This document shows, one piece after another, positions 1 to 15,129 of a DNA stretch of 15,537 bases. Source of the DNA: Candidatus Thorarchaeota archaeon (GTDB lineage: Archaea; Asgardarchaeota; Thorarchaeia; Thorarchaeales; Thorarchaeaceae). Location of the stretch: NCBI GenBank assembly GCA_029858305.1, contig JAOUFI010000051.1:1-15537 (forward strand), in the 5' to 3' direction. The notes below the pieces were generated by a model, which was not told where the DNA came from, did not search any database, and saw only the letters and a list, made by a program, of their open reading frames with translations. Position numbers and translations under genes: made by a program. Position 1 is the first letter of the stretch, and every line of letters begins with the position of its first letter.

Positions 1-28
1 GGAAGTTTCCTGGAAAAAGGAATATCCC

Positions 29-1027
29 ATGGAGAGTAGGTATAAGGTCGGCGTAGTAGTATCTATCCTGCTATTGCTGACACTCGGCATAACGATTCCC
101 TTGCTTTTCCCCTCATACCCATCATCTGTAGAGTTAACTATGCTTGGTCAGATTGGAACAGGCGGCGAGACTTGGGATGTGGAGGTTGTGGAAGATATTG
201 CATATGTCCTTGACTCAAATGATGGTCTTGTCCTCATCAACGTCAGTGATCCAGCGAATCCTGTACGTCTATCCTCCTATGATGGTGGTGGCGGACCGAT
301 GGCTCTTGATGTTGTGGAAGAATACGTGTTTGTGGCGGATCAATTTGATGGACTAGAGATTGTAGATGTCAGTGATTCAACCAACCCAATTGAGATAGGC
401 AGTTATCCTGGAAGTGAGGCAGCCTACGATGTACAGGTGATTGGTGACCTTGCCTATCTCGCAGACTGGAATGATGGTTTCGTCATCCTGAATGTCAGTG
501 ACCCGACAAATCCGACGTATCTAGCAAGGTATCAGACTACAGGCTCCTGTATCTTTGGTCGTGTAGTTGGCCAACTTGCATACATCATTGACCACCAAAG
601 CTATAGCTCGGGCCTGAGAATTCTCAATATCAGTGATCCACTCCATCCAAATCAAGTAGGCACTCATATGCCAAGTGGAGTGATACTCTGGAATCCAGTA
701 GTGGTTGGAGACTATCTCTATTGCGGAAATCATGGAGATGGTGGTGGAGAACTCAGAATAATCGATGTGAGTAATCCATCAAATATTACCCAGATAGGCA
801 CCTTTGTTAATTGTGGAACTGTATTCGCAATTTGGATTGTAGGGAATATGGCCTATCTAGCAGACTACCAACAGGGAGTGATAATAGTAGACATCAGTGA
901 TCCCTCAAGTCCCACAATTGATGGCAGGTACTCCAATGGAGGCCATGCTAGTAACATCGCCATTGCTGATAGTATCGTATATCTTGCTTCGCGTGCGGAT
1001 GGACTGAGAATCTTTCAGATTGCATAA
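29..1027 (+). CDS. Membrane-anchored LVIVD-repeat beta-propeller protein (about 7 blades)
   Basis: N-terminal hydrophobic helix (VGVVVSILLLLTLGITIPLLF) followed by seven ~43-aa repeats of the type V.gd.aYlad...Gl.i.dvsdP.nP..ig.y. Several N-x-S/T sequons (NVS, NIS, NIT). Confidence 0.9.
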   Translation: MESRYKVGVVVSILLLLTLGITIPLLFPSYPSSVELTMLGQIGTGGETWDVEVVEDIAYVLDSNDGLVLINVSDPANPVRLSSYDGGGGPMALDVVEEYVFVADQFDGLEIVDVSDSTNPIEIGSYPGSEAAYDVQVIGDLAYLADWNDGFVILNVSDPTNPTYLARYQTTGSCIFGRVVGQLAYIIDHQSYSSGLRILNISDPLHPNQVGTHMPSGVILWNPVVVGDYLYCGNHGDGGGELRIIDVSNPSNITQIGTFVNCGTVFAIWIVGNMAYLADYQQGVIIVDISDPSSPTIDGRYSNGGHASNIAIADSIVYLASRADGLRIFQIA

Positions 1028-1029
1028 AT

Positions 1030-1244
1030 ATCGCCGCTAATTCCCTCGAGTGTCTTACGTGCCACCAAGAGAACCCTTTCTCTTTTCCCCTGTATTCGTA
1101 TAGATTTTATACACATTCAGGACACTTTCGATGGTTCTCCTCCGGGACTGAATTTCAGATAACGTGATGCAGATTGGATATGTCTTTCCTCATCATAGTA
1201 TTAGCTTCATCGAGTGTCTGTTGTATTATCTTTTCCAAACTCAT
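1030..1244 (-). pseudogene. Possible decayed small gene with a CxxC motif
   Basis: From ATG at 1244 the frame reads MSLEKIIQQTLDEANTMMRKDISNLHHVI*NSVPEENHRKCPECV*NLYEYRGKEKGFSWWHVRH, with stops at 1155-1157 and 1107-1109. It fills an otherwise empty 370-bp gap between convergent genes. Confidence 0.25.
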
Positions 1245-1399
1245 TGCAGTCCGCCGCACGTACCTTGATACGTCCTACTCATGAACAATTGGATACAACC
1301 AAGGGGATTGGAATCACCCAACTACAAATTGCTCAAAATGTCATTCACACACTATCCAAATTGACATAGTTCTGGGAATCTATTGAGATGCTTGCCAGT

Positions 1400-2593: not shown

Positions 2594-2594
2594 C

Positions 2595-3737: not shown

Positions 3738-4387
3738 CGCTTTTTCCTCTCAGACTCCAGCCATTCTCGGAATTTAGCAGGCGATTTGAAACACCAGAAC
3801 GCTTCTTCTCTCGCAACAATATTAGCTTCGTAGCTTCCAGGAGTAAAGCCATATGTGTCAGTAATGATGAAGTATTTCCTTCGCCATATATCCTCAGGCA
3901 AGTATGATATCAGATGTGCACTCTTAATTGCTTTGGGGGGATCATCCATACCGCCCTTTCCACCATCCTCATAGGCGAACATCCAGACCTCTCTTGTTTT
4001 AATCACGCCATTTTCCCAAAGCGATGCGACTGCTGTTCCAGTTTCTTCATGGCGTCGATGCCTTGTGTATTCTCCATTTGGACTATGGGTTAGGATAATA
4101 TCAAAATACAGTTGGGGCAATAAGGACAGCACCGTTTGTTGCACATCATCTTCTGATAGAGGCAATTGCTCCGGTCCATCATCAATGTCACCAATCTCAC
4201 TGACTCCACCAAGTTGCTGGACAGCTCGGATGAATTTTGGCGCTCGATCTCTGTCACTTCCACGGCATAGCGATGCAATCGTCCAATGCCAGTCCGAGTG
4301 CTTGAGCACAGTCCCGCCAGCCCAGATTGTTTCATCATCAGGATGTGCAACTATCAAAGCAGCTGTGACATGTGTGCTCTTTTTCAT
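3734..4387 (-). CDS. PIG-L/LmbE family N-acetyl-sugar deacetylase
   Basis: AHPDDE zinc motif, and ILTH...GEYTRHRRHEE as a variant of the HxDH motif. Confidence 0.88.
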   Translation of the reverse strand: MKKSTHVTAALIVAHPDDETIWAGGTVLKHSDWHWTIASLCRGSDRDRAPKFIRAVQQLGGVSEIGDIDDGPEQLPLSEDDVQQTVLSLLPQLYFDIILTHSPNGEYTRHRRHEETGTAVASLWENGVIKTREVWMFAYEDGGKGGMDDPPKAIKSAHLISYLPEDIWRRKYFIITDTYGFTPGSYEANIVAREEAFWCFKSPAKFREWLESERKKR

Positions 4388-4409
4388 ACATACCAGCAGT
4401 GGTGCGAAG

Positions 4410-4416
4410 TATAAAA
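4410..4416 (-). promoter_or_regulatory. Candidate archaeal TATA box for the PIG-L/GT4/GH100 operon (leaderless transcript)
   Basis: TTTTATA on the minus strand 23-29 nt upstream of the ATG at 4387, with no Shine-Dalgarno visible. Confidence 0.45.
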
Positions 4417-4543
4417 GATGTAGCTCTGTCGTTTCTGTAATGAGGTCTGACCAGCGGAACCGGACTTTCCTAGCAATGAAAAAAAGCTATGACCATCATC
4501 TTATTAACTCCCAATGATAGGGCACCGATTAGAGGTTGACTGA

Positions 4544-4933
4544 ATGAAGATTCAACATTGGATAGATGAAGATGTAGTAACTTCCTCGGGGGACATATCC
4601 ATCAGAGAAGCAATCGGTCTCCTTTACAATAGGCACATTGGTTCAATCATTATTATTGACAAAGATAAGAAGTGCAAGGGTATTTTTACCGAACGTGATG
4701 CAATCCGCGTCATAGCTAATGATATTCCATTGAACAGGCCTCTCACTGAGGTCATGACGACCAATCTAAGGACAGTAGATGAGCATGTTACATTCTCGAT
4801 GGCAAAAGAAATCATGAGAGAACATAATATTAGACATCTGCCTGTCGTCGATAAGCAAGGACGACTCATTGGTCTTCTTAGTCTCAGAAAAATCCTAGAT
4901 GAAGTACATGAGATGCATAAAATCAAGCGTTAG
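4544..4933 (+). CDS. Stand-alone CBS-pair (Bateman domain) protein
   Basis: IGSIIIID..GIFTERD, VMT, and IRHLPVVD..GRLIGLLSLR. SD-like GAGGT upstream. Confidence 0.92.
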   Translation: MKIQHWIDEDVVTSSGDISIREAIGLLYNRHIGSIIIIDKDKKCKGIFTERDAIRVIANDIPLNRPLTEVMTTNLRTVDEHVTFSMAKEIMREHNIRHLPVVDKQGRLIGLLSLRKILDEVHEMHKIKR

Positions 4934-4963
4934 GAGTCATTAATAAAACCAGGAGATATAGCC

Positions 4964-5854
4964 ATGAAGCGCTTCGACAATAATCCTATTCTTCACCCAA
5001 TACCAGGCCATTATTGGGAGAATCGAAATGTGTTCAATGCAGCAGTCCTCAACGCTGGAAACAGAGTCCACATTCTCTACCGTGCTCAAGGCGATGATGG
5101 AGTATCACGCATTGGGTACGCTAGTTCATCGGATGGCTATTCAATCGATTCTCGGCAACCTGAACCAGCATTTATTCCAGAGAATTCTTGCGAGAACCTT
5201 GGTTGCGAAGATCCACGAATAACACAAATGAATGGAAATTGCTTGATGACCTACACAGCTTATGGAAATAATCCAAGAACAGCCTACCAAGTATCAATCA
5301 CCGAGATCTCGTTGGAAAACTTTCTTTCACACAAATGGCACTGGGGAGAGAGACTATTGCCTTTTGAGGGCATCCTAAACAAGAATGCTGTAATATGCCC
5401 TCGGAAGATAAATGGTTCATATGTGATGTATCACCGCATAGAACCAGATCTCTGTGTTGCGTATTCTGATGATCTTAAGCGTTGGTGTCAAATAAAGGCA
5501 GTAATGCATCCCAGATCGGGTTATTGGGATAGCCTCAAAGTTGGATCAGCAGGACCCCCAATCGAGATTAATGAGGGGTGGCTTTTCATCTATCATGGGG
5601 TGGATAATGAATATGTCTATCGTCTTGGTAGTCTTCTGATTGACAAGAAAAATCCTGAGAACATTCTCTATAGATCTGAAAAGCCGATATTAGAGCCCCA
5701 AGAGCCTTACGAGAAATTTGGTCTAGTACCAAATGTCGTATTCAGTTGTGGCAGTACTTTTTTGGATGACAAGCTTCTGATTTATTATGGAGGCGCAGAC
5801 TCTGTAGTGTGTGGCGCAGAGTTTGAACTAGGTGAACTTCTACCGAGGGCATAG
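4964..5854 (+). CDS. GH130 family beta-mannoside phosphorylase/glycosidase
   Basis: NPIL, VFNAA, YRA, EDPR, KN, YHG, PNVVFSCG and YYGGAD motifs. SD AGGAG upstream. Confidence 0.9.
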   Translation: MKRFDNNPILHPIPGHYWENRNVFNAAVLNAGNRVHILYRAQGDDGVSRIGYASSSDGYSIDSRQPEPAFIPENSCENLGCEDPRITQMNGNCLMTYTAYGNNPRTAYQVSITEISLENFLSHKWHWGERLLPFEGILNKNAVICPRKINGSYVMYHRIEPDLCVAYSDDLKRWCQIKAVMHPRSGYWDSLKVGSAGPPIEINEGWLFIYHGVDNEYVYRLGSLLIDKKNPENILYRSEKPILEPQEPYEKFGLVPNVVFSCGSTFLDDKLLIYYGGADSVVCGAEFELGELLPRA

Positions 5855-5859
5855 AAAAC

Positions 5860-6924
5860 TCATCTGAGTGGACTTTGAGACTCATGCTTGGTAAGTACCT
5901 CCATCTCAAGACGTGCCATGAGATAAGAAAGACCAGCCTCAGCTCCCTGATTTCGATTTAGACCACGAGCAGATATCCCATCATAAGCGCCGCCAGTAAC
6001 AGGATTATAGACCATTACGCCTTTAGAGTTCTTCCCAAAAAACCAACCAAATGCAGTCCATGCCATCTCGTAGTATTCTCTCTTTCCTGTCACCTGGAAG
6101 GCAATGGATGCAGCTTCTACCATACATGATGCTTCCAGTGGCTGCTGGTCATAGAGTGCTTTCTTGCCGCCTTTTTTGTACCAACCACGATTACCTACTG
6201 GCTGATAACTACCCTTGACGATGTCGTTTGCTGCAAGAAACTTGAGTGTCTTCTCCGCAATGCGAAGATAGTCCTTTCTTCCAGTTATTTGATACGCTCT
6301 GAAAAGAGCATGAGGAAGACGCGGGTTTGCGTAAGTAATATGCGATTCAAACCATTGCCATGTAGGAGAAGATGTCTGTCTATAAAGTTCACAGAGCTGT
6401 TCGGCAAGGTGAATTATATTCAGTAGAGGATTCTTGTCTTCGGGGAAGGCATTTGCATAATGGTAGAGACCTAGGATGGTGAACGCTTGAGCCCGAGGTG
6501 AACTTATATTCAATGCCCAAGTAAGACTCTTGTCAAAGATTTCCTGTGCGGCCATTCTAGTATCCTCAGGAATTGAAGTTTCTTGAGCATAGCCGCAGGC
6601 CCAGAGTACACGTCCAAGTGAGTCGTCTGAGCCTATATCATCAAGAAAGCTACGGTCGTATCCAATGTAGTTATGAAGTCGTCCATCTTTTCTCTGAACA
6701 TACAGGAGAAAACTGAGGTATGTTCTAGAAAGCCCTACGTTTTTTTCTCCGTCCATTAGTTCATGGTATCTGAGAGTAGCTAGAAGTGCCCGGGCATTAT
6801 CATCTGTAGCGTATCCTTCTCTCCGATCAACTATCGATGACTTTGCGTGCTGAAGAATACCCGTGTCGTCGGTCATATTATACAGCCAAAGGCAATTAAC
6901 TGAAGGTAGCTCGATGGGGATCAC
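5860..6924 (-). CDS. Six-hairpin (alpha/alpha)6 domain protein, normally the C-terminal half of long GT4 fusion proteins
   Basis: TDDTGILQHA, GYATDDNARAL, WFE..ITYAN.RLPHAL, DQQPLEA, WFFGKN and NQGAE motifs. GTG start with AGGA upstream. Confidence 0.82.
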   Translation of the reverse strand: MIPIELPSVNCLWLYNMTDDTGILQHAKSSIVDRREGYATDDNARALLATLRYHELMDGEKNVGLSRTYLSFLLYVQRKDGRLHNYIGYDRSFLDDIGSDDSLGRVLWACGYAQETSIPEDTRMAAQEIFDKSLTWALNISSPRAQAFTILGLYHYANAFPEDKNPLLNIIHLAEQLCELYRQTSSPTWQWFESHITYANPRLPHALFRAYQITGRKDYLRIAEKTLKFLAANDIVKGSYQPVGNRGWYKKGGKKALYDQQPLEASCMVEAASIAFQVTGKREYYEMAWTAFGWFFGKNSKGVMVYNPVTGGAYDGISARGLNRNQGAEAGLSYLMARLEMEVLTKHESQSPLR

Positions 6925-6932
6925 TATCCTGC

Positions 6933-8096
6933 CTACTGCGTTAATTCTTTGAACAGGTCAGCATATTTCGAGGCCACGCGAGGCCATGTCATACTTTGGC
7001 CATGTTCGTATGCAAGTTTCTCAATGTGAGCTTTCTTTTGAGGATTGTCCAAGAGTTGCCTGATGCCATCGGAAATGGATTTAGGACTGCTAAACTTACA
7101 AAGGATACCTCTGTCTTCAGCTAAAAGCTCTTCGGCATAATAGAAAGGAGTGGATATGATAGGCTTTCCAGCCCCCAATGCATAAGTGACTGTTCCGCTT
7201 GAGAGCTGTTCCTTTTTGATGTAGGGACAAATGTACACATCTGTGGCTTGTAGGTACTTTATCAATTCATCCTTGCTAAGGAAACGATTATGGAATCGTA
7301 CATTTTCTTTTAGACTTAGCCTATTTACCAATCGCATAAGGCGCTTCCTGTATTTCTCGCCCTCGCCCATCCTGACCTGTGGATGAGTGACTCCGATTAT
7401 CAAGTAGAGTAAATCAGGATGCTCCTTTACAATCTCCGGTAATGCTTTGATTGCATGTTGAATTCCCTTGTCTTGACTTAGGAGACCGAAGGTTGACAGA
7501 ACAGTCCGCCCTTCCAAGCCCAGCTCCTTCTTTGCTGGTGTACTTGGTACAAATGGGAAGCTAGGGGTTCCGTGCGGGATGACATTGATTTCATCCTTGT
7601 TAATACCATAGTACTCATGTAGGATGTGAGCTGCCATATTCGTCATAACCACAATGGCAGAACTAGCTCGCGCTATTCCATTCACTACTCTATTGTGGGC
7701 GTCTGCGCTCTCTGATGTTTGGAATATCTTAGCATCAGGAAAAAGAGTTGTATGCATTGTAGTAACAATAGGTTTGTTCAGTTTTTCCAAGAATGTTAAT
7801 AGATATTCACCCCACGTCCCCCCGAAAAGTCCAAACTCGTGTTGTACATTTACTAAATTAAGATCTGAGCTATTAATGTAGTCGGCAGCCTTTTCATAAC
7901 TTGCTATTTCGTCCTCATCAATTTGCCATACTACTTCTTTTCCGTAGTTATAAGATGAACCAGGGTCATTGATAGCCATGATAGCCGAGGGTTCTATCAC
8001 TTTGAGGTTGTCTATACTCTTGCTCAAGTCTGCCGTGAAGGTGGCTATTCCACACTGTCTGGGGGAATAACTACTCAAGTATGCCACTCTTAACAT
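6933..8096 (-). CDS. Glycosyltransferase family 4 (putative mannosyltransferase-type)
   Basis: SYSPRQCGIATF, QHEFGLFGG, IPHG, TFGLLSQDKG, and SSGTVTYALGAGKPIISTP. Confidence 0.92.
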   Translation of the reverse strand: MLRVAYLSSYSPRQCGIATFTADLSKSIDNLKVIEPSAIMAINDPGSSYNYGKEVVWQIDEDEIASYEKAADYINSSDLNLVNVQHEFGLFGGTWGEYLLTFLEKLNKPIVTTMHTTLFPDAKIFQTSESADAHNRVVNGIARASSAIVVMTNMAAHILHEYYGINKDEINVIPHGTPSFPFVPSTPAKKELGLEGRTVLSTFGLLSQDKGIQHAIKALPEIVKEHPDLLYLIIGVTHPQVRMGEGEKYRKRLMRLVNRLSLKENVRFHNRFLSKDELIKYLQATDVYICPYIKKEQLSSGTVTYALGAGKPIISTPFYYAEELLAEDRGILCKFSSPKSISDGIRQLLDNPQKKAHIEKLAYEHGQSMTWPRVASKYADLFKELTQ

Positions 8097-8251
8097 AAAT
8101 CAATCACATCATTAGCAGAAACAAGGATTATCTATTTGAATTAGACGATGTGTAAACCTAGATAAGTGTGTGAACCAGCGATAGGAACGAGCAGTTCTTT
8201 TCACAAGGATAATGTTATCACATCAGTCTGAGTTCGGTTGTGGATGCCAGC

Positions 8252-9610
8252 TCAAACGAGTTTCTTTGCACGCTCAATGAGCTTAACACCCTCCTCACTA
8301 AGGCGATCAGCAGTTTCTTGTGTTTTCCCCTCAGCAAAACAACGATAGAGAGGCTCAGTACCCGAGGGTCTGATGAGAATCCAGCCATCATCACGAATTA
8401 TTTTGATACCGTCAATTGTGATACGATTCATGTTCTTGCTTATGTCAAGAAGCGCTGTTAAGATGGATTCTTTCTTATCTTGAGGAACTGGCACCTTCAC
8501 TTTTGTATTGAAATATGTAGGAAGCTCACTTACAAGCTGGGAGAGCGTCTTGCCTTCTAACGCAATCATTTCTACAATTTGGGAAGCAGTCATTGCACCA
8601 TCACGAACAGGCTGATGATCCGGATAGAAGACCCCTCCATTTTCTTCACCACCTAATTCCGCACCAATCTCGTCAATTCTGTGCGAGACAACAACACTTC
8701 CAACTTCAGTCCAGTCTATCTTAGCGCCTGCCTTTTGGGCGACATCTTCTATAAGACGACCACTTGAAATAGGTGTGACTAGAGTTGAACCACGTTTCTT
8801 AGCTAAAACTCTCGAGGCAATCAATGCAAAGGATTGGTCTCCCCAAAGAACCCTCCCTGTTTCATCAACAAAGGTTGCTCTGTCTGCATCGCCATCGTGT
8901 GCAATCCCTAAATCAGCTCCCATAGCAACCACCGCTCTCGAGAGGTCTGTTAAATTCTCAGGAATTGGCTCAGGATTTCTACCAGGAAAAGAACCATCTA
9001 ACTGAGCGTTGAGTGAAACAACCTTGCATCCAAGTTCTCGTAAGAGCCGCGGAGTCACAACGCTACCTACACTATTGGCACCATCAATAACCACTTTCAG
9101 TTTCTTCTCCCTAATCTTATCGCCATTAACAAGCGATTTGATTCCTTTAGTATATTCATCAACTGCAGTGGTATAATGTGTGATTTCTCCAATTTCGTTC
9201 CAATTTACAGTTTTGAACTCGTGGGAGTGGTAGACATTCTCAAGCTGAACTTCGGTTTCTCGCGTTATTTCAATTCCATTAGAGCCAATAACCTTAATCC
9301 CATTGAATTGAGGGGGGTTATGCGAGGCTGTAACCATGACTCCAGCGTTACAGCCTAATCTGGGCGTCATATACTGTAGAGTAGGAGTTGGTACAGAACC
9401 AAGATTGACAACCGAGCAGCCTGTTGAGGCCAGCCCAGACATCGATGCATAAGTAAACATTTCACCGCCCATTCGTGAGTCCCGCGCGATGGCAGTTTTG
9501 CCAGGTCCTAACACAGTACCTATTGCGCGACTCAGGTTGAGGACTAATTCAACGGTCAGTTCCTTGTTGATTATGCCTCGGACACCATTTGTACCAAACA
9601 TTCCAGTCAA
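8252..9610 (-). CDS. glmM: Phosphohexomutase (archaeal phosphoglucosamine mutase / phosphomannomutase)
   Basis: FGTNGVRG, catalytic TASHNP, metal loop DGDADR, GEENGG and RPSGTEP. The start may be the ATG at 9601. GlmM versus PMM/PGM specificity cannot be resolved from sequence. Confidence 0.9.
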   Translation of the reverse strand: MTGMFGTNGVRGIINKELTVELVLNLSRAIGTVLGPGKTAIARDSRMGGEMFTYASMSGLASTGCSVVNLGSVPTPTLQYMTPRLGCNAGVMVTASHNPPQFNGIKVIGSNGIEITRETEVQLENVYHSHEFKTVNWNEIGEITHYTTAVDEYTKGIKSLVNGDKIREKKLKVVIDGANSVGSVVTPRLLRELGCKVVSLNAQLDGSFPGRNPEPIPENLTDLSRAVVAMGADLGIAHDGDADRATFVDETGRVLWGDQSFALIASRVLAKKRGSTLVTPISSGRLIEDVAQKAGAKIDWTEVGSVVVSHRIDEIGAELGGEENGGVFYPDHQPVRDGAMTASQIVEMIALEGKTLSQLVSELPTYFNTKVKVPVPQDKKESILTALLDISKNMNRITIDGIKIIRDDGWILIRPSGTEPLYRCFAEGKTQETADRLSEEGVKLIERAKKLV

Positions 9611-9642
9611 AATTATATCACTAATACTATTGGGAGCTTATG

Positions 9643-9664
9643 TTATCTTAAGACTTATCTTAAG
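9643..9664. promoter_or_regulatory. Tandem TTATCTTAAG x2 in the mutase promoter region
   Basis: Exact 10-bp direct repeats at 9643-9652 and 9655-9664, each containing the palindrome CTTAAG, 33-54 nt upstream of the gene. Confidence 0.45.
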
Positions 9665-9723
9665 GGATTTTTTGGGGGTGATGTTTTCGACAATCTAATA
9701 CTACATAGAACAGTCGTGGACAC

Positions 9724-10341
9724 TCACAAAGGGTAGCCTATTGTCTGCGCGAATAAAATCCGTTGAGTAGGAAGCAGCTTGAATTCGACCATAATGGTTT
9801 CTCTATCACAATTGTGGAACCAGGTAGCCAATCCCTCTGAGGCGGCAAAGAGATTGATGTTCTGCGCGATGAACCCAGTGTCTGTGAAGTAATACGACTT
9901 CTGAACTTCGGGTTCACCAATATGAGGATCAGGTTGGTCAGGTCCAAGGTCATACCTTGCGAGGTCTACAACATAGAAGATGTTCACCGGTGTATGCCTT
10001 GTAAGTCTAGATGCACCGCCCTGACCTGAGATGCTACTGAAGTCCCCTGTAGCAATGGGCGTCAGCTGATGGGGAATTGCCTCATACAAGTACAACCCAC
10101 TCTTCAATGCAACATAAAGATCAATCTCTTGTGAATTACTTGCAGAGGGAGCTGTGCGTCCTGGTTTATGAAAGGATGCCTTCTCACGATTCACGCCAAA
10201 GGCGGCCCAGAGAAGGTTTGAGAGAACCTGTAGTGGAATCTCTCTAGAACCGATATTTCGATTAGTTCGCCTGAGTGATAGGGCTTCCAGTAGGGTCTTT
10301 CCACCTCTCTTCATAGGTTCTGGTAAGATAATTGAATCCAT
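9724..10341 (-). CDS. Nitroreductase family protein (SagB/ThcOx-like FMN oxidoreductase)
   Basis: LEALSLRRTNR, LSNLLWAAFG, RTAPSASNSQEIDLYV, and DTGFIAQNINLFAASEGL. ATG at 10341 is preferred over GTG at 10350 because AGGTG lies upstream of it. Confidence 0.88.
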   Translation of the reverse strand: MDSIILPEPMKRGGKTLLEALSLRRTNRNIGSREIPLQVLSNLLWAAFGVNREKASFHKPGRTAPSASNSQEIDLYVALKSGLYLYEAIPHQLTPIATGDFSSISGQGGASRLTRHTPVNIFYVVDLARYDLGPDQPDPHIGEPEVQKSYYFTDTGFIAQNINLFAASEGLATWFHNCDRETIMVEFKLLPTQRILFAQTIGYPL

Positions 10342-10449
10342 TGCACACACCTACTGCAGATCTGGTTCCCATCTCAGATAGATAGCATCGATGCCATCAC
10401 TTATGACTTCTATATCAGTAATCGCGAATTTATGTGATATATCAATTAA

Positions 10450-10560
10450 GGCAAAGAGAGATATTTGGACCTGACTGTTTACCGTATAGGCAAGAGAAGC
10501 AGATGTAGCTTCATTTTCAAAAAGAGAGAGGAGATTCCTCTCTCGTTCCTTTTCCTTTTC
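10450..10560 (+). repeat. Dispersed intergenic element, copy R1 (with 3' hairpin)
   Basis: CCTGACTGTTTACCGTATAGGCAAGAGAAGCAGATGTAGCTTCA (10470-10513) is 38/44 identical to R2. Confidence 0.9.
10524..10560. terminator. Perfect 9-bp hairpin with pyrimidine tract, possibly a bidirectional terminator
   Basis: GAGAGAGGA-GAT-TCCTCTCTC (10524-10544) with an A-run before it and a T/C tract after it. It lies downstream of the 63-aa gene. Confidence 0.55.
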
Positions 10561-10635
10561 AAAGAATGACTGATTAGACAGAATTTCTTCATTTTGTAGT
10601 CAGAATCTACTTTCTAAAGAGGAAGAAAGGTGTTT

Positions 10636-10827
10636 CTATGACTTTTCAGTCACTATATTGAGCCCTGCAATACCTAAACAAAACAGTGCGATTCCAATCA
10701 TTGTTTGATCTACGGATTGTCCAAGTAGGGGCAATACAATGGCTGCCACACCCATTGCAAGTGCAACCGCATAGAGGACTAATAGTACGATTTTTTGCGT
10801 TGACATTTTAGTCGACATTTTTTTCAT
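10636..10827 (-). CDS. Small two-helix membrane protein, function unknown
   Basis: Two hydrophobic segments and a strong SD (AGGAG) directly upstream of the ATG. Confidence 0.8.
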   Translation of the reverse strand: MKKMSTKMSTQKIVLLVLYAVALAMGVAAIVLPLLGQSVDQTMIGIALFCLGIAGLNIVTEKS

Positions 10828-10896
10828 CTTCTCCTATTGATACCAAGTTTTCTGGTGATATGGCATAGGATTGTTAGTATATTATTTAATCGATGC

Positions 10897-10990
10897 AACT
10901 TGATCCTGACTATCTGCCGTACAGGCAAGAGAAGCTGATGTAGTTTCAAGTTTCGAATCAAGAGAGAAGATTCCTCTCTCATCATCTTTT
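10897..10990 (+). repeat. Dispersed intergenic element, copy R2 (with 3' hairpin)
   Basis: CCTGACTATCTGCCGTACAGGCAAGAGAAGCTGATGTAGTTTCAAG followed by AGAGAG-N7-CTCTCT (10961-10979). 10906-10934 is 28/29 identical to 12863-12891. Confidence 0.92.
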
Positions 10991-11006
10991 CTTGCGGATC
11001 GTCATG

Positions 11007-11582
11007 CTATATTTTGTTAGGATTTGTCCATTCTCTTCTAAGTAAAGAGTAGTAGCAGTCATCTCTGAATTCTCCTCTAAAGAAGGAACTGTCTCGAGAG
11101 ATGCCCTCTTCGGAGAAACCCAGTCTCCTGAGGAGGTCCCTTGAAGCCATGTTAATGGCTGCTGTGTGAGCTTCGATTCGATTTAGATTCAGATTTTCAA
11201 AGCCATATTCTATTATTATTCTCAGAGCTTCAGTCATGAATCCACGTCCCCAATACTCCTTCAGAAGATCATACCCTATCTCACCACTGCGGTTCTCTTT
11301 GTCGATTTTCTCATAACTGCACGTACCGATGAATGTGTAATCTTCTTTCAATACTATTGCCCAAGCAATTCCATTCCTCTTTTCATAGCGGTCACTGAAG
11401 CTCTTGATGATGCTTTTTGATTCTTCCACATTTTCGAGAGGTTCCATTCCAATAAGGACCGCTACCTCATCATCCGAGAGATTCTTGAACCAGTTCTCTG
11501 AATCATCAACAGTAAGTTGGCGTAAGATTAGTCGTTGAGTTTCAAGTATAGGAAAAGGTGAACTTCTTGACATTAAATGCAT
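11007..11582 (-). CDS. RimJ/RimL-family GNAT N-acetyltransferase
   Basis: LETQRLILR, EIGY.L..EYWGRGFMTEAL, LNRIEA, and N.AS..LL.RLGF.EEG. Confidence 0.93.
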   Translation of the reverse strand: MHLMSRSSPFPILETQRLILRQLTVDDSENWFKNLSDDEVAVLIGMEPLENVEESKSIIKSFSDRYEKRNGIAWAIVLKEDYTFIGTCSYEKIDKENRSGEIGYDLLKEYWGRGFMTEALRIIIEYGFENLNLNRIEAHTAAINMASRDLLRRLGFSEEGISRDSSFFRGEFRDDCYYSLLRREWTNPNKI

Positions 11583-11674
11583 CTCAATTAGTAGGAGCCC
11601 AACGCCCCTGATATTTCAATCGGGTGAAAGACTAACAATTGCTCCTCTATGGAAACCAACTCTTCATTATATAG

Positions 11675-11716
11675 CTCAGGAAACCTTCAGACCGTATTAT
11701 CTGTCAGTATCAGCAA
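11675..11716 (+). repeat. Degenerate left half of the element (R2b), overlapping the ADH stop codon
   Basis: CTCAGGAAACCTTCAGACCGTATTATCTGTC shares CTTCAGACC exactly with R4 (13474-13482) and has TATCTG.C at the same spacing as in R2/R3. Confidence 0.55.
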
Positions 11717-12728
11717 TGTCGTTGAAAAGGACGATTCGGTAGCGTGCTTTGTTTTCTTTAACCTTCCGAATCGCTTTGTTGACCTCCGACATGGGCATCA
11801 ACTCCATTTTAGGCATGATGCCATGCTCCTGCGCGAAAGAGAGCATCTCCCGCATTGTGGTCCGATTGCCGAGGAAAGAACCAGTAATCGACAGCTGGTG
11901 TGCAACGAGGTCAGTCGAATTGAATGATACATCTGGGAAACCAACAACGACTAGCTCCCCATTTTTCTTCAAGATGTTCAATAACGGCTCCCAGTTAATC
12001 TTGCCGCTGGCAGTGCATAACAGTAAGTCGAAATCAAACTGAGCTTGCCTTAGGCTAACCTTGTCGTCCGAAGCGATGAAGTGGTCTGCGCCAAAAGCAA
12101 GCGCCTGCTGTTTCTTCTCTTCAGAGGAAGAAATTGCAGTGACATCGTAGTCAAGCGCGTGGGCGAACTGCAGTGCGAGGTGGCCTAACCCTCCCACACC
12201 AATGATACCGATCTTCTGTGCGGATCGATTTGCGTACGATCGGAGCGGGGAATAGACCGCGATTCCAGCGCACATGAGCACCGCGGCCACCTCAGAGCGC
12301 ATGGCATCAGGAAGCGGATAGGCAAAGCGGCTATCAACAAATACAGAGGACGAGAAGCCACCAAAGGGGACCCACGTTCCCGAGTCAACAATGTCCAAGC
12401 ACAGCTGTTCTTCACCCTGTAAGCACCACTCACATTTCATACAAGAACGGCCTTGCCAACCGATGCCTACACGATCCCCTTCCTTTAAGTCGGACACTGC
12501 ACCGCCTACATCTGACACGTACCCAACTATCTCGTGACCTGGGACAAAGGGATAGGCGGTTATTCCGTAGTAGTCGTCAATGGCGTGGATATCAGTATGG
12601 CACAGACCGCAGTGCGTAACAGAGACCCTGATATCATGCTCCCCTAGTTTAGGGGGCTTGAAGGCGAATTGCTCGAGCGGCTGTCCCACCGCTCTTGCTG
12701 CATATCCCAGAACCCTCGAGGAAGGCAT
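11697..12728 (-). CDS. Zn-dependent NAD(P) alcohol dehydrogenase (MDR superfamily, CAD-like)
   Basis: CGLCHTD, PGHE, structural Zn motif CMKCEWC.....C, GVGGLG, and ARYRIVL. ATG at 12728 follows GGAG; GTG at 12740 is the alternative start. Confidence 0.95.
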   Translation of the reverse strand: MPSSRVLGYAARAVGQPLEQFAFKPPKLGEHDIRVSVTHCGLCHTDIHAIDDYYGITAYPFVPGHEIVGYVSDVGGAVSDLKEGDRVGIGWQGRSCMKCEWCLQGEEQLCLDIVDSGTWVPFGGFSSSVFVDSRFAYPLPDAMRSEVAAVLMCAGIAVYSPLRSYANRSAQKIGIIGVGGLGHLALQFAHALDYDVTAISSSEEKKQQALAFGADHFIASDDKVSLRQAQFDFDLLLCTASGKINWEPLLNILKKNGELVVVGFPDVSFNSTDLVAHQLSITGSFLGNRTTMREMLSFAQEHGIMPKMELMPMSEVNKAIRKVKENKARYRIVLFNDIADTDR

Positions 12729-12843
12729 TCGTACGACCACTCCAGTTTAATAGTATGCATCCACTGGATAGGCCAAGGATGCTGCCCAATGTTAATTGAA
12801 GCTAGGATATTAGCATTCCGTTCAGTAGAGAAAAATAGTCCAA

Positions 12844-12897
12844 GCAAGAGAAATCTTTGGAGCTGACTATCTGCCATACAGGCAAGAGAAGGCAGGT
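12844..12897 (+). repeat. Dispersed intergenic element, copy R3 (3' part absent)
   Basis: GCAAGAGAAATCTTTGGAGCTGACTATCTGCCATACAGGCAAGAGAAG, located between divergent genes. Confidence 0.92.
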
Positions 12898-12959
12898 CTT
12901 ATTGTAGCATGAAAGACTTTTATCCACGAACCACTCTTCCATGCGCCAAGGGACAATAA

Positions 12960-13448
12960 GTGATTTTTAGAAGGAGGGCTAAGAAAGCGAAAATACAGGT
13001 CTATCTTCGGAGTGGAGAGAGACCAAACACAGACTGGCTGAGAGCTGCGTCTATTATGAGAGGAAAGGACAACAAACCAATGGATCCCATTACAAGGAGT
13101 ATGGTTGGTGCGTTCACTCTTGCAGCCAAGACAGAGATAGAACTGTCGGGAGGAACAGGTCTGCACATGTCAATCTTTGAAAACACAACACTCCTTATTG
13201 TTCAAAAAGCAGCAGAGGACTTGAATTGTGAATACGAGTTCATCGACCTCAGGACTGGTTCATTGATGGACTTAGATGAACGAGGTAGGCTTCGTACTAT
13301 AGGAAAGAAAAAACTAGACAATTATGAACAAAATCTACCTGCACCATGTTTGAGGGTGGGAGAGGCTGTGCAACCTTTCCGCTCAGAACAAGGTCCCACT
13401 ACTGACGAAATCAGACATTTCTATCTAAGCAATTCGCCACAGATGTAA
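12960..13448 (+). CDS. Hypothetical protein (162 aa), weak resemblance to a thioredoxin-like fold without CxxC
   Basis: Fills the R3-R4 interval. Segments IQVY, AAEDLNCEYEFIDL and PAPCLRVG recall glutaredoxin secondary-structure order. Confidence 0.7.
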   Translation: MIFRRRAKKAKIQVYLRSGERPNTDWLRAASIMRGKDNKPMDPITRSMVGAFTLAAKTEIELSGGTGLHMSIFENTTLLIVQKAAEDLNCEYEFIDLRTGSLMDLDERGRLRTIGKKKLDNYEQNLPAPCLRVGEAVQPFRSEQGPTTDEIRHFYLSNSPQM

Positions 13449-13463
13449 TCAGGCAGGCCTCAC

Positions 13464-13570
13464 CTCAAGGAGTCTTCAGACCTAATTGCTCACCCTACAG
13501 GCAAGAGAATCAGATGTGATTTCAAGTTCTAAATTAGGAGAGAGGGAACCTACCTCCCCTCTTCTTTTTT
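13464..13570 (+). repeat. Dispersed intergenic element, copy R4 (with 3' hairpin and T6)
   Basis: GACCTAATTGCTCACCCTACAGGCAAGAGAATCAGATGTGATTTCAAGTT followed by an imperfect GGAGAGAGGGA...TCCCCTCTTC hairpin and TTTTTT. Confidence 0.88.
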
Positions 13571-13623
13571 ATACTAAATATGCATTCTCACATTGCTACA
13601 AACAAGTAAACGAGAGATGAAGT

Positions 13624-14127
13624 TTGGTCGAGGAGTCTGATTTGTCAGAGGTCAAACAGGTGACATACACAAAGAAAGAGTTGAAGAAGTATCTGAAGGA
13701 TCTTGTCAAGAAAAAAGACAGATTGACCGCATTCAAATTCGAGTATCAATCGGGGCATACAGCTTTTCATACTCGACTGAGAATAGTGATAACATCCGAA
13801 AGAGTCGAGCATCGGAGAATTCCAAGAGGTATTCCTGTCGATAGTCCAAATGAAGCGAACGCGACGAAATTACAGCAGATGAATTTCTCCGGTGAGAAGT
13901 TATCTGAATTTGTAGGAGAGTTGATGAATAGTAAGATATGGGACTTGGAGAATTGTACTGAGAGAGCACTTCCTGATACAGCCCTACTCACCTTTAGTAT
14001 CAGGGACAATGACAATCTTGTGTTCGAACAGAAGGTCTGGGAGAGCTGCAGAAATGACGACAAGAGCACGAAAGAGCTACTACGTACTATCGCAGCTATC
14101 ATTCCGCGGGATTGGACTCCTCCGTAA
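13624..14127 (+). CDS. Hypothetical protein (167 aa)
   Basis: Long ORF with normal soluble-protein composition filling the R4-R5 interval. TTG start; no family recognised. Confidence 0.72.
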   Translation: MVEESDLSEVKQVTYTKKELKKYLKDLVKKKDRLTAFKFEYQSGHTAFHTRLRIVITSERVEHRRIPRGIPVDSPNEANATKLQQMNFSGEKLSEFVGELMNSKIWDLENCTERALPDTALLTFSIRDNDNLVFEQKVWESCRNDDKSTKELLRTIAAIIPRDWTPP

Positions 14128-14153
14128 CTTCTTGAAAATCATCATGAATCGCT

Positions 14154-14216
14154 AGATATTCGGATTAGATAATCCGCCATACTTATGACAAGAGAAGCAA
14201 ATGTATTTCCAATTCG
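14154..14216 (+). repeat. Dispersed intergenic element, copy R5 (diverged, 3-nt insertion in the core)
   Basis: AGATATTCGGATTAGATAATCCGCCATACTTATGACAAGAGAAGCAAATGTA aligns collinearly with R1 AGATATTTGGACCTGACTGTTTACCGTATAGGCAAGAGAAGCAGATGTA. Confidence 0.75.
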
Positions 14217-14318
14217 CATTTCGGAATTTTTGCCATAAGTAGAATATCAAAACGTACTTCCTATGCGCAGGGATTATATGCCTCATCAATCTTCTACGCT
14301 CTCGTGTGGTGATAGCAC

Positions 14319-14771
14319 ATGACAAAGGCTCTAATTGTTTATTATAGCTTATATGGTAATACTGAGAAAGTAGCAAATGCCTTGGCTGCAGGTCTACAGA
14401 GCGTCGGATGCGACGCCAAAACTGTCAAGGTTGACGCCTTCAACTTGAATAGTTTAGGCGAAACCAATCTTTTGTGTGTTGGGACTCCAGTGCATGCTTT
14501 TAATATTTCAAAGCCTATGAAGGAGTTTCTTGAGCGATTAGAGAATCAGGAAGGCCTGAGTGGTAAGAAAGCATTTGCGTTTGATACCAAGATGAAGAGT
14601 AGATTAGCTGGTACTGCTGGTGGCAAGATTGAGAAGAAACTCAAACAACTTGGTTTTGAGATTATCGAGCCAGCCAAGTCAGCAGTTGTGAAAGGCAGAG
14701 AAGGACCTCTTGAAGAGGGTGCTGAAGAAACATTCAAACAGATAGGTGCTGAACTAGGCAGAATGGTGTAA
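14319..14771 (+). CDS. Short-chain flavodoxin family protein
   Basis: FMN phosphate loop YYSLYGNTEKVA, GTPVH, and GKKAFAFDT. Confidence 0.92.
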   Translation: MTKALIVYYSLYGNTEKVANALAAGLQSVGCDAKTVKVDAFNLNSLGETNLLCVGTPVHAFNISKPMKEFLERLENQEGLSGKKAFAFDTKMKSRLAGTAGGKIEKKLKQLGFEIIEPAKSAVVKGREGPLEEGAEETFKQIGAELGRMV

Positions 14772-14826: not shown

Positions 14827-15129
14827 ATGGAAGCATCACTAAGAGATATGCTCAGGCATGGAAGGAAGTTTGAACGGATGAGGACTGATGAACCGGGAGT
14901 GTTCATAAGGAAAATACCTCAGTATAAAAATGAACCAGCCTATCTGGCTGTCGAAATCAATCCGATTGATAAGAACGGACTCCCAATGAATAAAATTGGA
15001 GTCATCATAAGAAACCAGAACGAACTTGACGCAATTAGAGCAATTCTCTCTCAAAAAAAGGTAGATGAAGTACTTCAGGCGATTGAGAATGTCAGCCAAC
15101 AAAAAGCTGACAAGAGAGATGAGGAATGA
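14827..15129 (+). CDS. Conserved archaeal-type hypothetical protein (100 aa)
   Basis: SD GGGTGA upstream. The PGVFIRKIP...LAVEINP...GLP..K.GVIIR pattern is recalled from uncharacterised archaeal proteins and was not verified by search. Confidence 0.8.
   Translation: MEASLRDMLRHGRKFERMRTDEPGVFIRKIPQYKNEPAYLAVEINPIDKNGLPMNKIGVIIRNQNELDAIRAILSQKKVDEVLQAIENVSQQKADKRDEE

Follow-up and report, generated by a model that had tools for sequence, protein, structure and literature searches.

The repeats of the array described here, each about 115-125 nt long, duplicate the 3' end of a three-domain acyl-CoA dehydrogenase (ACAD) gene. The DNA analyzed, a stretch of 15,537 nt referred to below as the window, comes from a Thorarchaeota archaeon (Asgard), and the whole of it is inside a variable region of that genome. 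Five same-orientation repeats of approximately 115 nt and one decayed half copy were found in the window, with unrelated genes between them. We are highly confident of this structure, namely ACAD-tail repeats forming a cassette array with the ACAD gene at its head. The features of the window are as follows:

2..1027, plus strand: LVIVD-repeat protein gene, truncated at its 5' end by the contig edge
1400..9610: glycan-related block (GH, GT1, PIG-L, CBS, GH130, unknown, GT1, PGM)
9724..10350, minus strand: nitroreductase, directly left of R1
10448..10561, plus strand: repeat R1, ACAD-tail copy with open frame (…QREIFGPDCLPYRQEKQM) and stop codon TAG at 10506-10508
10636..10827, minus strand: 63-aa ORF, cargo without Pfam family; a G042 contig holds a 79% identical relative
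10896..10997, plus strand: repeat R2, 5' third replaced, frame kept from …PDYLPYRQEKLM, stop at 10941-10943
11007..11582, minus strand: GNAT acetyltransferase, cargo; between two repeats also in G004 (80% nt) and G042 (82% aa)
11671..11703, plus strand: R2b, decayed truncated repeat, model columns 11-43 only, weak by profile (E 0.19)
11697..12740, minus strand: zinc-type alcohol dehydrogenase (ADH), cargo; unit also in G005_C113 at 14923-16102 (78% nt)
12833..12948, plus strand: repeat R3, frame …KIVQAREIFGADYLPYRQEK running into an altered end that shifts the stop to 12910-12912; ATG absent
12960..13448, plus strand: 162-aa ORF, cargo without Pfam family; a repeat-flanked unit of G042 holds an 84-85% identical relative
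13457..13573, plus strand: repeat R4, diverged copy (…GVFRPNCSPYRQENQM), stop codon TGA at 13517-13519
13624..14127, plus strand: 167-aa ORF, cargo, no Pfam family
14136..14226, plus strand: repeat R5, a degenerate copy interrupted by in-frame stops and a 3-nt insertion, which has lost its stop codon and lacks a hairpin
14319..14771, plus strand: flavodoxin, cargo
14827..15129, plus strand: 100-aa ORF; metagenome piece L189 has a 79% identical relative at a distance of 2 nt from a repeat

A repeat search of the window grouped copies at 10454, 10889, 12846 and 13465, and another family added one at 14189. The 11-nt core, allowing at most one mismatch, occurs five times, always on the plus strand, versus 0.49 occurrences expected, and none of 200 shuffles reached this count. 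With an nhmmer profile built from R1-R5 and run against the host genome, the five copies obtained E-values between 1.9e-25 and 1.5e-15, and six further copies were found, all on three short contigs (C2, C77 and C52). All eleven strong copies in this genome are on array contigs, and the next best match has an E-value of 0.11. The first 10 kb of the window contain no copy by profile, even with filters off (best E 1.8). The first-pass annotation had described this layout correctly: five copies and a half copy facing one way, none in the first 10 kb, and a gene order of 63-aa gene, GNAT and ADH on the minus strand followed by two orphans and the flavodoxin on the plus strand. The half copy, weak by profile, is backed by synteny: homology of the GNAT unit with G004 stops at 11667, where G004 has a full repeat. 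R2b also overlaps the stop codon of the ADH gene.

What was annotated at first pass as an anonymous asymmetric element is a copy of the ACAD 3' end; overlooked was that its core is a reading frame with coding-type variation and corresponds to the end of this gene. The repeat spans the last 20-23 or so ACAD codons (…K-I-V-M-A-R-E-I-F-G-P-D-Y-L-P-Y-R-Q-E-K-Q-M), the stop codon and a terminator hairpin with a T-run, and its translation ends …KIVMAREIFGPDYLPYRQEKQM-stop, as does the tail of the 413-aa ACAD. In G042, the repeat is the 3' terminus of the ACAD ORF, whose product matches PF02771, PF02770 and PF00441, with the C-terminal domain stopping at residue 399 of 413. Among the window copies, R1 has no ATG at the Met position and carries its hairpin at 10524-10543, followed by a T-rich run; the R2 hairpin is at 10961-10980; the 3' extension of R3 is of the CCACTCTTCC type, not the GAGAGAGG hairpin type; and the tail of R4 forms an imperfect hairpin followed by a T-run.

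An intact ACAD gene heads the array in seven loci (G042, G014_C56, G012_C61, G005_C113, G067 and two long metagenome contigs), and the orthologs heading other arrays are 88-96% identical at the amino acid level. The array runs downstream of the gene and in its orientation, as repeat-cargo-repeat-cargo. An empty site, where ACAD has its own tail only, is seen in G044 (one genus). ACAD residues 1-122 are encoded at the cut end of contig C60 in the host genome, and the array on the closed chromosome of G041 has no ACAD ortholog adjoining it, a point against the general picture. Mismatches among the repeats by codon position number 31/26/54, and information content computed from 132 copies shows a three-base periodicity. 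Codon differences among 147 gap-free copies are 63,390 synonymous and 50,285 non-synonymous, as against 7,965/102,468 and 11,967/99,726 in the two control frames.

The repeat motif is present in 62 of the 87 genomes of the class Thorarchaeia, representing 14 of its 17 genera. Most of the genomes compared are incomplete MAGs. There is one array per genome; on the closed 3.16-Mb chromosome (G041), all five repeat copies (5/5) lie within 5 kb. Considering only sequences with at least two copies, repeat orientation is uniform in 50/50 genome sequences and 43/43 metagenome pieces (93/93 in total), and array stretches with at least 20 copies on one contig were seen. The 151 units have a median length of 1,343 nt, and 97 of them contain one ORF; few are large (up to 14 kb). 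Their cargo is diverse, with 263 ORFs falling into 204 clusters, and includes surface proteins, redox enzymes, regulators and many orphans; 158 ORFs are oriented opposite to the repeat and 105 in the same direction. Cargo pairs with at least 60% amino acid identity have non-homologous neighbors in 27/29 and 20/21 comparisons (47/50), made between genomes that are related and not independent, and single-ORF cargo pairs differ in length by 15 nt or less in 10 of 16 cases. The first-pass suggestion of a gene-cassette-like array thus stands: one array per genome, uniform orientation, mostly single-gene units, and the same units elsewhere with other neighbors. Clustering of copies and synteny breaks at the repeats, which it had proposed as checks, were both found, and the two patterns that it had named as contrary evidence, scattered REP/MITE copies and conserved gene order, are both excluded.

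The neighbors of the GNAT unit differ in G004 and G042, the ADH unit of G005_C113 ends in a repeat, and flavodoxin-domain proteins account for 3 of 150 cargo representatives of other arrays; no relative of the 167-aa ORF was found within the 1.0 Mb of array DNA compared. The nitroreductase is cargo too: its 83-87% identical relatives in five other arrays all have a repeat at a distance of 7-65 nt. Within the glycan-related block, the CBS-to-PGM part, probably one large multi-gene unit, is separated from a repeat by 136 nt in G017_C76 and bounded by repeats on either side in L086. The LVIVD gene is a single-gene unit with flanking repeats in G042 (88% aa), and on contig C77 of the host genome itself a repeat lies 91 nt from a 91-93% identical LVIVD copy. 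R1 is not the start of the array, since three stretches to its left, namely the nitroreductase, the LVIVD gene and the CBS-to-PGM block, form units between repeats in other genomes.

Shared segments end in repeats 14 times more often than expected by chance: 61 of 115 internal ends are inside repeats, which make up 3.9% of the DNA. Median columns in the repeat are 22 for starts and 69 for ends, and the ends are spread over the repeat, not fixed. Cargo co-varies with the post-stop half of the repeat upstream of it (0.684 vs 0.576, bootstrap difference 0.032-0.182), and its pre-stop linkage is marginal (0.044, interval -0.002 to 0.090). Repeat identity is approximately 71% (0.713 within one contig vs 0.694 between genomes), which is low for homologous recombination outside a 25-30-nt core and speaks against frequent gene conversion. 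The only population-level evidence comes from assembled contigs of other samples in public runs: they show alternative joints at repeats, a weak signal (sides of 27-44 nt, likeness set at 90) that could come from assembly artefacts.

From these patterns, we infer that recombination occurs within the repeats, with steps of accretion and excision. DNA carrying one repeat would recombine with a resident repeat, adding a unit and duplicating the repeat (like attB x attP or Campbell insertion), and two resident repeats would recombine to release a unit as a circle with one hybrid repeat. Crossover would fall within the translated part of about 70 nt, mostly near the highly conserved last eight codons, which would make the mobile unit a post-stop half-site, cargo and a pre-stop half-site, in this order. 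A repeat landing beside the ACAD body would become its real C-terminus, and orphan copies would then decay; the coding-type divergence of the repeats would be due to this service as the C-terminus. Since every repeat contains a terminator, promoters must come with the cargo, in keeping with the mixed orientation of the genes. As for the driver, we lean to general or short-homology recombination of the host, with variable crossover points, over a dedicated integrase. Cassette accretion and exchange by recombination within the gene-tail repeat, with no dedicated integrase, has in our estimate about an even chance of being correct.

The first-pass reading corresponds to a different explanation: an integron analogue with a dedicated site-specific recombinase, which, belonging to an unrecognized family or acting in trans from transient elements, would bind the conserved core at the stop codon and insert and excise circular cassettes. 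We consider this unlikely, at roughly a one-in-three level or slightly below. Such an enzyme would account for the third positions of the last eight codons, which are conserved across genera far beyond coding needs, as expected for its protein-binding core, for repeat edges that are sharp and constant on both sides in more than 200 copies, and for arrays that are stable at up to 20 or more copies per contig. The copies (about 70% identical) are also too divergent for easy homologous recombination, and integrase-less attC clusters (CALINs) are common in archaea according to the portion of PMC9668308 consulted. However, no Pfam tyrosine or serine recombinase was detected in the genome of the window (G000), G005, G014, G042 or the closed G041, with 0 matches to PF00589 in all five; a Pfam-based absence leaves room for a recombinase of a novel family. 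Tyrosine recombinases (PF00589) occur in 29 of the 87 genomes without association to the arrays (21/62 motif-positive and 8/25 motif-negative genomes), and never on the same contig as repeats in the 15 genomes for which both positions are listed. In 1.0 Mb of array DNA (2,524 frames), a class-specific integrase profile retrieved a single integrase frame, which has no flanking repeats. Shared-segment ends scattered over the repeat also weigh against such an enzyme, and a fixed crossover hardly explains coding-type divergence upstream of the core. The proposed recombinase encoded elsewhere is therefore unsupported.

If plasmids or viruses with an integrase had inserted one after another at the ACAD 3' end and each had then been reduced to a gene or two, the array would be a relic of the CIME, ssrA-island or tycheposon type. 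Described examples share the architecture of an intact target gene followed by same-orientation partial 3'-end copies (PMC3146451, PMC5704250 and bioRxiv 2020.12.28.424599, each as far as consulted), and the units of up to 14 kb would fit; this origin is nevertheless improbable, given the median unit of 1.3 kb and the predominance of single ORFs. No integrase remnant is present among the 25 most frequent of 172 Pfam families matched by 150 cargo representatives or, with the class-specific profile, among cargo in the 2,524 frames; viral contigs gave 0 repeat matches; and small units are intact with conserved length in several species, which random decay would not give. The repeat might also encode a 19-residue peptide (M-A-R-E-I-F-G-P-D-Y-L-P-Y-R-Q-E-K-Q-M) as a gene present in many copies and equipped with a terminator, the likeness to the ACAD tail reflecting origin only. 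An ATG conserved at about 1.1 bits per base, the retention of ATG, 19 codons and stop in 100 of 218 copies, and coding-type divergence even in orphan copies speak for it, but as 19-codon frames over half of the copies, and all five in the window, are broken or truncated, nothing is conserved upstream beyond the 9 nt before the ATG, so that there is no shared promoter, and both the array architecture and the ACAD at its head are left unexplained, making a peptide gene very improbable. A dispersed REP/MITE-type repeat, regulon operator or small-RNA family would likewise be short, intergenic and hairpin-bearing, yet we give it practically no credence: strong copies in the host genome are confined to the window and three short array contigs, the closed chromosome has one locus, orientation is uniform, no Rfam match was found at E up to 1, and variation is coding-type. 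The distribution of copies refutes a REP/MITE-type dispersed repeat.

Thorarchaeia are Asgard archaea, close to the root of eukaryotes. Models of eukaryote origin give a central place to gene flow into Asgard archaea, for which few exchange routes are known. Those named in the literature consulted include viruses, tRNA-targeting elements such as aloposons, attC integrons (~8% of genomes) and integrated plasmids. We tentatively propose, with somewhat less than even confidence, that the array is a Thorarchaeia-wide gene-capture platform, integron-like but independently invented, whose recombination site comes from a housekeeping-type ACAD gene, namely its translated tail plus terminator, with single-gene cassettes circulating between species through a recombinase of an unrecognized family or none. 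With 20 or more units and its presence in 62/87 genomes, the array may be a main seat of accessory-gene turnover in this lineage. It also shows that integron-like modularity can arise on a very different site, a coding gene tail whose copies record coding selection, apparently dispensing with the tyrosine recombinase by which integrons are defined. Should there be an enzyme, it would be a candidate for a new site-specific recombinase; should there be none, the array would be a model for short-homology cassette exchange. In practical terms, the repeats break MAG assemblies and provide a simple marker for locating the variable region.

Several known systems invite comparison. The attC site ends in R'' (RYYYAAC) and R' (GTTRRRY) and forms a single-strand imperfect palindrome. 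There are 0 R''..R' pairs in the window between 10300 and 15537 (shuffles average 0.59), ssDNA folds of the repeats give only the 7-9-bp terminator hairpin, and Rfam has no match, in agreement with the first-pass view that the site is not canonical attC. An attC integron was rejected: there is no IntI, no attC motif or unit-spanning imperfect palindrome, and ACAD is at the head. The pdif modules have 28-bp XerC/XerD sites in alternating orientation, served by host Xer recombinases. A dif/Xer module array was also rejected, the sites here being about 120 nt long and in one orientation and the host having no PF00589 protein. Still, like integron arrays, including CALINs in Archaea, as portrayed in part of Ghaly et al. 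2022 (PMC9668308), the ACAD-tail array is one chromosomal platform of tandem, mostly one-gene units with one site copy each, its cargo is very diverse and often of unknown function, units stand in other orders between genomes, and site copies vary within an array. Unlike in integrons, the site is a translated gene tail plus terminator, the head is a metabolic gene instead of intI/attI/Pc, and cargo orientation is mixed; most integron cassettes share one orientation and lack promoters.

The tandem ssrA islands of Dehalococcoides, in the part of McMurdie et al. 2011 (PMC3146451) consulted, likewise have an intact single-copy target with downstream same-orientation 3'-end repeats that bound strain-specific cargo, all in one region, and some of them lack integration genes. 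There the target is tmRNA, the repeat 20 bp and the islands several kb long, and 16 islands carry a six-gene integration module including a serine recombinase (same source); the present array has a protein gene as its target, a repeat of about 120 nt, a median unit of 1.3 kb and no unit with an integration module. Prochlorococcus tycheposons, as partly covered by Hackl et al. (bioRxiv 2020.12.28.424599), also expand as insertions recur at one site and displace older units inward, with partial target-gene copies between units and degenerate remnants piling up; they use tyrosine recombinases and tRNA-gene targets, with 1-2 elements per genome. The ACAD-tail array differs in having no linked recombinase and up to 20 or more small units. 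For CIME accretion, the classic example is the fda gene. Streptococcal CIMEs, in the part of PMC5704250 consulted, resemble the array in inserting at the 3' end of a protein gene, which the element restores, and in integrase-less tandem units that keep their att sites. These are decayed ICEs or IMEs mobilized by a related integrase in bacteria, in arrays of 2-3 elements of kb to tens of kb, and no archaeal or single-gene equivalent is described in the literature consulted. Of the traits of accretion systems, an intact target gene with same-orientation partial 3'-end copies bounding variable DNA is present here (the seven ACAD-headed arrays and the G044 empty site), and units with a cognate integrase or integration module were not found (1 unflanked frame in 2,524). 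The literature searched yielded no earlier description of an ACAD-tail cassette array; apparently undescribed itself, it is best read as kin of the known att-repeat islands and integrons.

A profile of the repeat located five ~115-nt elements in a single orientation in the last 5 kb of the window, and a decayed sixth element, R2b:

10448-10561, + strand, R1, match to the repeat profile
10896-10997, + strand, R2, match to the repeat profile
11671-11703, R2b, decayed half copy, weak in the profile (E 0.19)
12833-12948, + strand, R3, match to the repeat profile
13457-13573, + strand, R4, match to the repeat profile
14136-14226, + strand, R5, match to the repeat profile

An 11-nt core occurs five times on the + strand versus 0.49 expected, and five occurrences were reached in none of 200 shuffles. 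The first-pass annotation had thus described the repeats correctly. Its half copy near 11675 is a weak profile match, but it lies exactly where the homologous GNAT unit of another genome of the class (G004) bears a full repeat. The annotation was also right about the first 10 kb, where a profile search detects no copy, and about the genes between copies, which are unrelated and lie on both strands: a 63-aa ORF, a GNAT, a zinc alcohol dehydrogenase (ADH), two orphan ORFs and a flavodoxin. At its end the 162-aa cargo ORF reads Q-M-stop (CAG ATG TAA, window 13446-13448), resembling the repeat's own end, and a second frame is open from within it into R4 for at least 30 codons; both features are possibly due to chance.

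When the window's genome (G000) was scanned with a profile built from R1-R5, as the annotation had proposed, 11 strong copies could be aligned, the five in the window and six on the short contigs C2, C77 and C52. Their conserved core is a reading frame, M-[A/G/T]-R-E-I-F-G-[P/A]-D-Y-L-P-Y-R-Q-E-K-Q-M-stop, in which mismatches concentrate at third codon positions (31/26/54 by position) and the differences between copies include CGT/AGA exchanges for Arg and CTG/TTA exchanges for Leu. Across 132 anchored distinct copies from many genomes the information content is three-periodic, with a sharp 5' edge 9 nt ahead of the ATG and a 3' side that fades ~50-70 nt past the stop codon, beyond a hairpin and a T-run. 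Synonymous codon differences exceed non-synonymous ones in 147 gap-free copies (63,390 and 50,285), with 7,965/102,468 and 11,967/99,726 in the control frames; third positions of the last eight codons are unusually conserved.

On a 77-kb contig of G042, the first repeat forms the genuine end of an ORF of 413 aa, which finishes ...GGSHVQKIVMAREIFGPDYLPYRQEKQM and contains three acyl-CoA dehydrogenase domains (Pfam), the C-terminal of which stops at residue 399. The repeat is therefore a copy of the last ~20-23 codons of this acyl-CoA dehydrogenase gene (ACAD), with its stop codon and terminator. Intact copies number 100 of 218; the rest lack the start (14) or have lost the stop (18), contain internal stops (15) or deletions (33), or are truncated (38), a mixture that is expected of gene-tail copies decaying once orphaned. 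Searches for a structured RNA gave no Rfam match at E up to 1, and the coding signal accounts for the conservation. Possible inverted repeats flanking the core were noticed by eye in R1 and R2. An integron attC site was excluded by attC-motif, single-strand folding and Rfam checks of the repeat, which bear out the earlier suggestion of a site other than canonical attC.

A degenerate codon pattern searched against 185,579 species genomes returned 65 stretches, all from MAGs labelled Thorarchaeota, other Asgard or uncultured archaea; viral contigs gave 0 matches, and a virus-borne element was rejected on that ground. At up to 2 mismatches the pattern is present in 62/87 genomes of the class, where some single hits may be ACAD's own tail alone, and in 14/17 genera; 0/16 genomes of the phylum outside the family have it. 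The window's genome is that of an archaeon and contains a full-length archaeal SSU rRNA. Repeat orientation is uniform in 93/93 sequences with at least two copies (50 genomic and 43 metagenomic), and the five copies on the closed 3.16-Mb chromosome (G041) all lie within 5 kb in one orientation. This distribution, with strong copies confined to array contigs and to one locus on the closed chromosome, excludes a REP/MITE or regulon site; the scatter in both orientations that the first-pass annotation had named as evidence against itself is not what we see. As duplicates of the gene's 3' end, the repeats occupy one insertion locus.

An ACAD ortholog (88-96% aa) heads the array, co-oriented with it, in G042, G014_C56, G012_C61, G005_C113, G067 and two long metagenome contigs; one ACAD-headed metagenome contig carries at least 20 copies in 52 kb. 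An empty site is found in G044, a member of another genus, where nothing but its own tail follows the body of ACAD (81% aa) and repeats are otherwise absent. An aspartokinase/Asd cluster is common to G044 and G067; in the latter it lies a few kb upstream of ACAD, with several other genes between, and the array follows ACAD. Downstream of ACAD at the empty site (L123/L124, G044:C1, reverse-complemented composite 16475-20156) are small ORFs, among them an apparent nucleotidyltransferase/PIN pair and a DinB-like polymerase, as judged from ORF starts only. Contig C60 of the window's genome breaks off within ACAD, whose residues 1-122 it carries at the cut end, and the array is evidently split over C60, C2, C77, C52 and the window. 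No ortholog of the anchoring ACAD adjoins the five-repeat array of G041 (composite 20136-25217); there is only a paralog of 27% identity, 7 kb downstream (32300-33502).

In 542 kb of array DNA the 218 copies are accompanied by 151 inter-repeat units with a median length of 1,343 nt (10th-90th percentiles 508-3,354 nt). The proposed alternation of one gene with each repeat agrees with these units, 97 of which contain a single ORF of 60 aa or more. Cargo ORFs number 263; they form 204 clusters, 161 of them singletons, and are of mixed orientation, as had been noted in the window (158 against the repeat and 105 with it). Of the 184 cluster representatives with 75 aa or more, 150 were scanned against Pfam, which revealed surface-type cargo (NosD/beta-helix and LVIVD proteins) along with TPR proteins, AsnC-type regulators, flavodoxins, GNATs, DUF362, ABC transporters, and beta-lactamase-fold and metallo-hydrolases; no recombinase was among the 25 most frequent of 172 families. 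One unit, bounded by a partial repeat on one side and the following repeat remnant on the other, is a giant ORF of 2,701 aa (L125/L126, G067:C1, composite 20589-28694). In L039 (G005:C113) repeats 14136-14236 and 14272-14386 are only 35 nt apart, forming an "empty" unit.

Units assort independently, with breakpoints in the repeats. The window's GNAT unit also occurs in G004 (80% nt, borders 10905-11667) and G042, and its ADH unit in G005 (78% nt, window 11710-12890); in each case homology stops in the repeats and the neighbours differ. Conserved gene order among relatives, which would have spoken against a cassette array, is not observed: among unit pairs taken from different genomes and sharing cargo at 60% aa identity or more (44 pairs), a homologous preceding unit was seen in only 2/29 cases and a homologous next unit in only 1/21. 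Lengths differ by 15 nt or less in 10/16 single-ORF pairs. Unit order is permuted, for example 28-24-0-3-8 in G004 versus 29-0-28-8 in G014_C43, and loss alone cannot account for such permutations.

The whole window is within the variable region of the genome. Relatives of the nitroreductase left of R1, 83-87% identical, lie 7-65 nt from a repeat in five other arrays, and in G042 the LVIVD gene forms a unit flanked by repeats; on C77 of the window's own genome a repeat lies 91 nt from a 91-93% identical LVIVD copy. In G017 the CBS-to-PGM block is separated from a repeat by 136 nt, and in the sequence piece L086 it is flanked by repeats at both ends. A profile search detected no repeat remnant at window 1074-10447. 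Direct repeats with a 126-nt period at window 240-912 correspond to the 42-residue LVIVD repeats inside the LVIVD gene and are ordinary.

Assembled contigs of other public runs (Logan) contain alternative joints, which hint weakly at unit polymorphism at the repeats; window parts without cover in runs X2-X4 were left out of the evidence. The joints run from 10421 to 10906, skipping R1 and the 63-aa gene (contigs of X2 and X3, one study), from 1073 to 10482, with repeats on both sides of the LVIVD gene (X2), and from 10941 to 11685, with a full repeat in place of GNAT before ADH (X2). Their matching sides span 27-44 nt inside repeats, with a likeness of 90, and may stem from the repeats or from other organisms. 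Compared with the window, an X2 contig also has 1,329 extra letters at 15392/15393, where a near-identical population thus carries an insertion or a replacement. Between G000 and G042 the cargo proteins are no more alike (79-85% aa) than the ACAD proteins (86%), a comparison that leaves recent between-species transfer unsupported; segments of 98-99% nt identity that occur between different species representatives are at most suggestive of such transfer.

Segments shared between genomes at 88% nt or more have 115 internal ends, 61 of which fall inside a repeat; repeats make up 3.9% of the DNA. Segments start at median column 22 of the repeat profile and end at median column 69, the stop codon occupying columns 67-69, although these positions are spread rather than fixed and are blurred by alignment extension through similar repeats. 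The post-stop part (spacer and hairpin) co-varies with downstream cargo (0.684 versus 0.576 for the repeat after the cargo; bootstrap difference 0.032-0.182) and the pre-core part marginally with preceding cargo (0.758 versus 0.714; interval -0.002 to 0.090), a signal interpretable only after limiting the comparison to the 44 pairs. Almost none is seen in all 81 cargo-sharing unit pairs (0.73 versus 0.69), and 19 pairs at 35-60% identity do not repeat the spacer pattern (0.46 versus 0.54). Together, segment ends in repeats and co-variation of repeat halves indicate that the unit is [post-stop half]-cargo-[pre-stop half], with exchange inside the translated part. Repeats cut at approximately column 48-52 accompany the same cargo (G042 composite 17028-17074, L076 4535-4581, L103 4199-4245); since they do so in several genomes, some half-sites are passed on as part of the unit.

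The interpretation offered by the first-pass annotation stands in part: the cassette-type array is supported, and a linked recombinase was not found. Neither PF00589 (tyrosine recombinase) nor PF00239 (serine recombinase) has a match in the window's genome (88.9% complete), G005, G014, G042 or closed G041 (G041/G051, chromosome CP070761.1); by the same models no XerA-type enzyme was seen in these genomes. Tyrosine recombinases are present in 29/87 genomes of the class (21/62 motif-positive versus 8/25 motif-negative), and never share a contig with repeats in the 15 genomes with both positions listed, an observation weakened by the shortness of MAG contigs. Upstream of ACAD the flank is only partly syntenic, with two genes common to G000 and G005, a leuACDB-like cluster in G012 and membrane proteins in G014; these four flanks hold no candidate for a conserved recombinase beside ACAD.

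Of 2,524 frames in array-bearing DNA (1.0 Mb), a profile from 22 class integrase frames matched one. This lone frame belongs to an island of metagenome piece L143 (1869-13513) that lies 10 kb from a single orphan repeat. Besides the tyrosine integrase, the island encodes a DUF3987 protein, nucleases of the PD-(D/E)XK and PLD types, a DDE transposase, a STAND-TPR NTPase and a truncated UvrD-like ORF. No second repeat bounds the island. We judged it unrelated to the array, since its one orphan repeat is 10 kb away and no tRNA is present; it probably represents an independent mobile or defence element inserted into the variable region. A weak 22-nt repeat match within the integrase gene (E 0.24) was taken as chance.

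Insertion may proceed by recombination of DNA bearing one repeat with a resident repeat, and a unit may be lost when two resident repeats recombine. That host recombination at variable points, or gene conversion, drives this exchange has in our estimate about an even chance of being correct. We lean towards it because breakpoints are spread, no recombinase is linked, and orphan copies show coding-type divergence upstream of the core; those segments must repeatedly have been part of a live ACAD gene, and a crossover fixed in the core would not give rise to such divergence. The same three observations argue against an unrecognised or trans-acting site-specific recombinase, which we regard as a less likely alternative. 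It would, however, fit the conserved synonymous sites of the core and the low identity of copies within an array (only 0.713 versus 0.694 between genomes), both of which count against host recombination. Decayed integrase-bearing elements are an unlikely explanation of the array, and it is very improbable that the copies constitute a micropeptide gene family.

A full-text literature search, which did not cover subscription journals and supplements, yielded no description of an ACAD-tail array in Thorarchaeota. The array is highly relevant to archaeal genome dynamics and possibly to the discovery of recombinases. According to excerpts of published accounts, Dehalococcoides ssrA islands have 20-bp repeats of the tmRNA gene end and serine integrase modules (PMC3146451), tycheposon islands have partial tRNAs and tyrosine recombinases (bioRxiv 2020.12.28.424599), and integrase-less CIMEs accrete at gene ends (PMC5704250). 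For integrons in Archaea, similar excerpts describe attC clusters, most of which lack an integrase, in ~8% of Asgard genomes (PMC9668308). The excerpted accounts of Asgard mobile elements cover tRNA-targeting aloposons and integrated plasmids with short att sites, with the ACAD-tail array absent from them (PMC8813620, PMC11529989). In structure the ACAD-tail array is closest to the tandem att-repeat islands (ssrA islands, tycheposons and CIMEs), and in unit size, diversity and shuffling to integron arrays. It differs from all of these in that no recombinase is associated with it, cargo orientation is mixed, units comprise about one gene, and the site is the translated tail of a protein gene.
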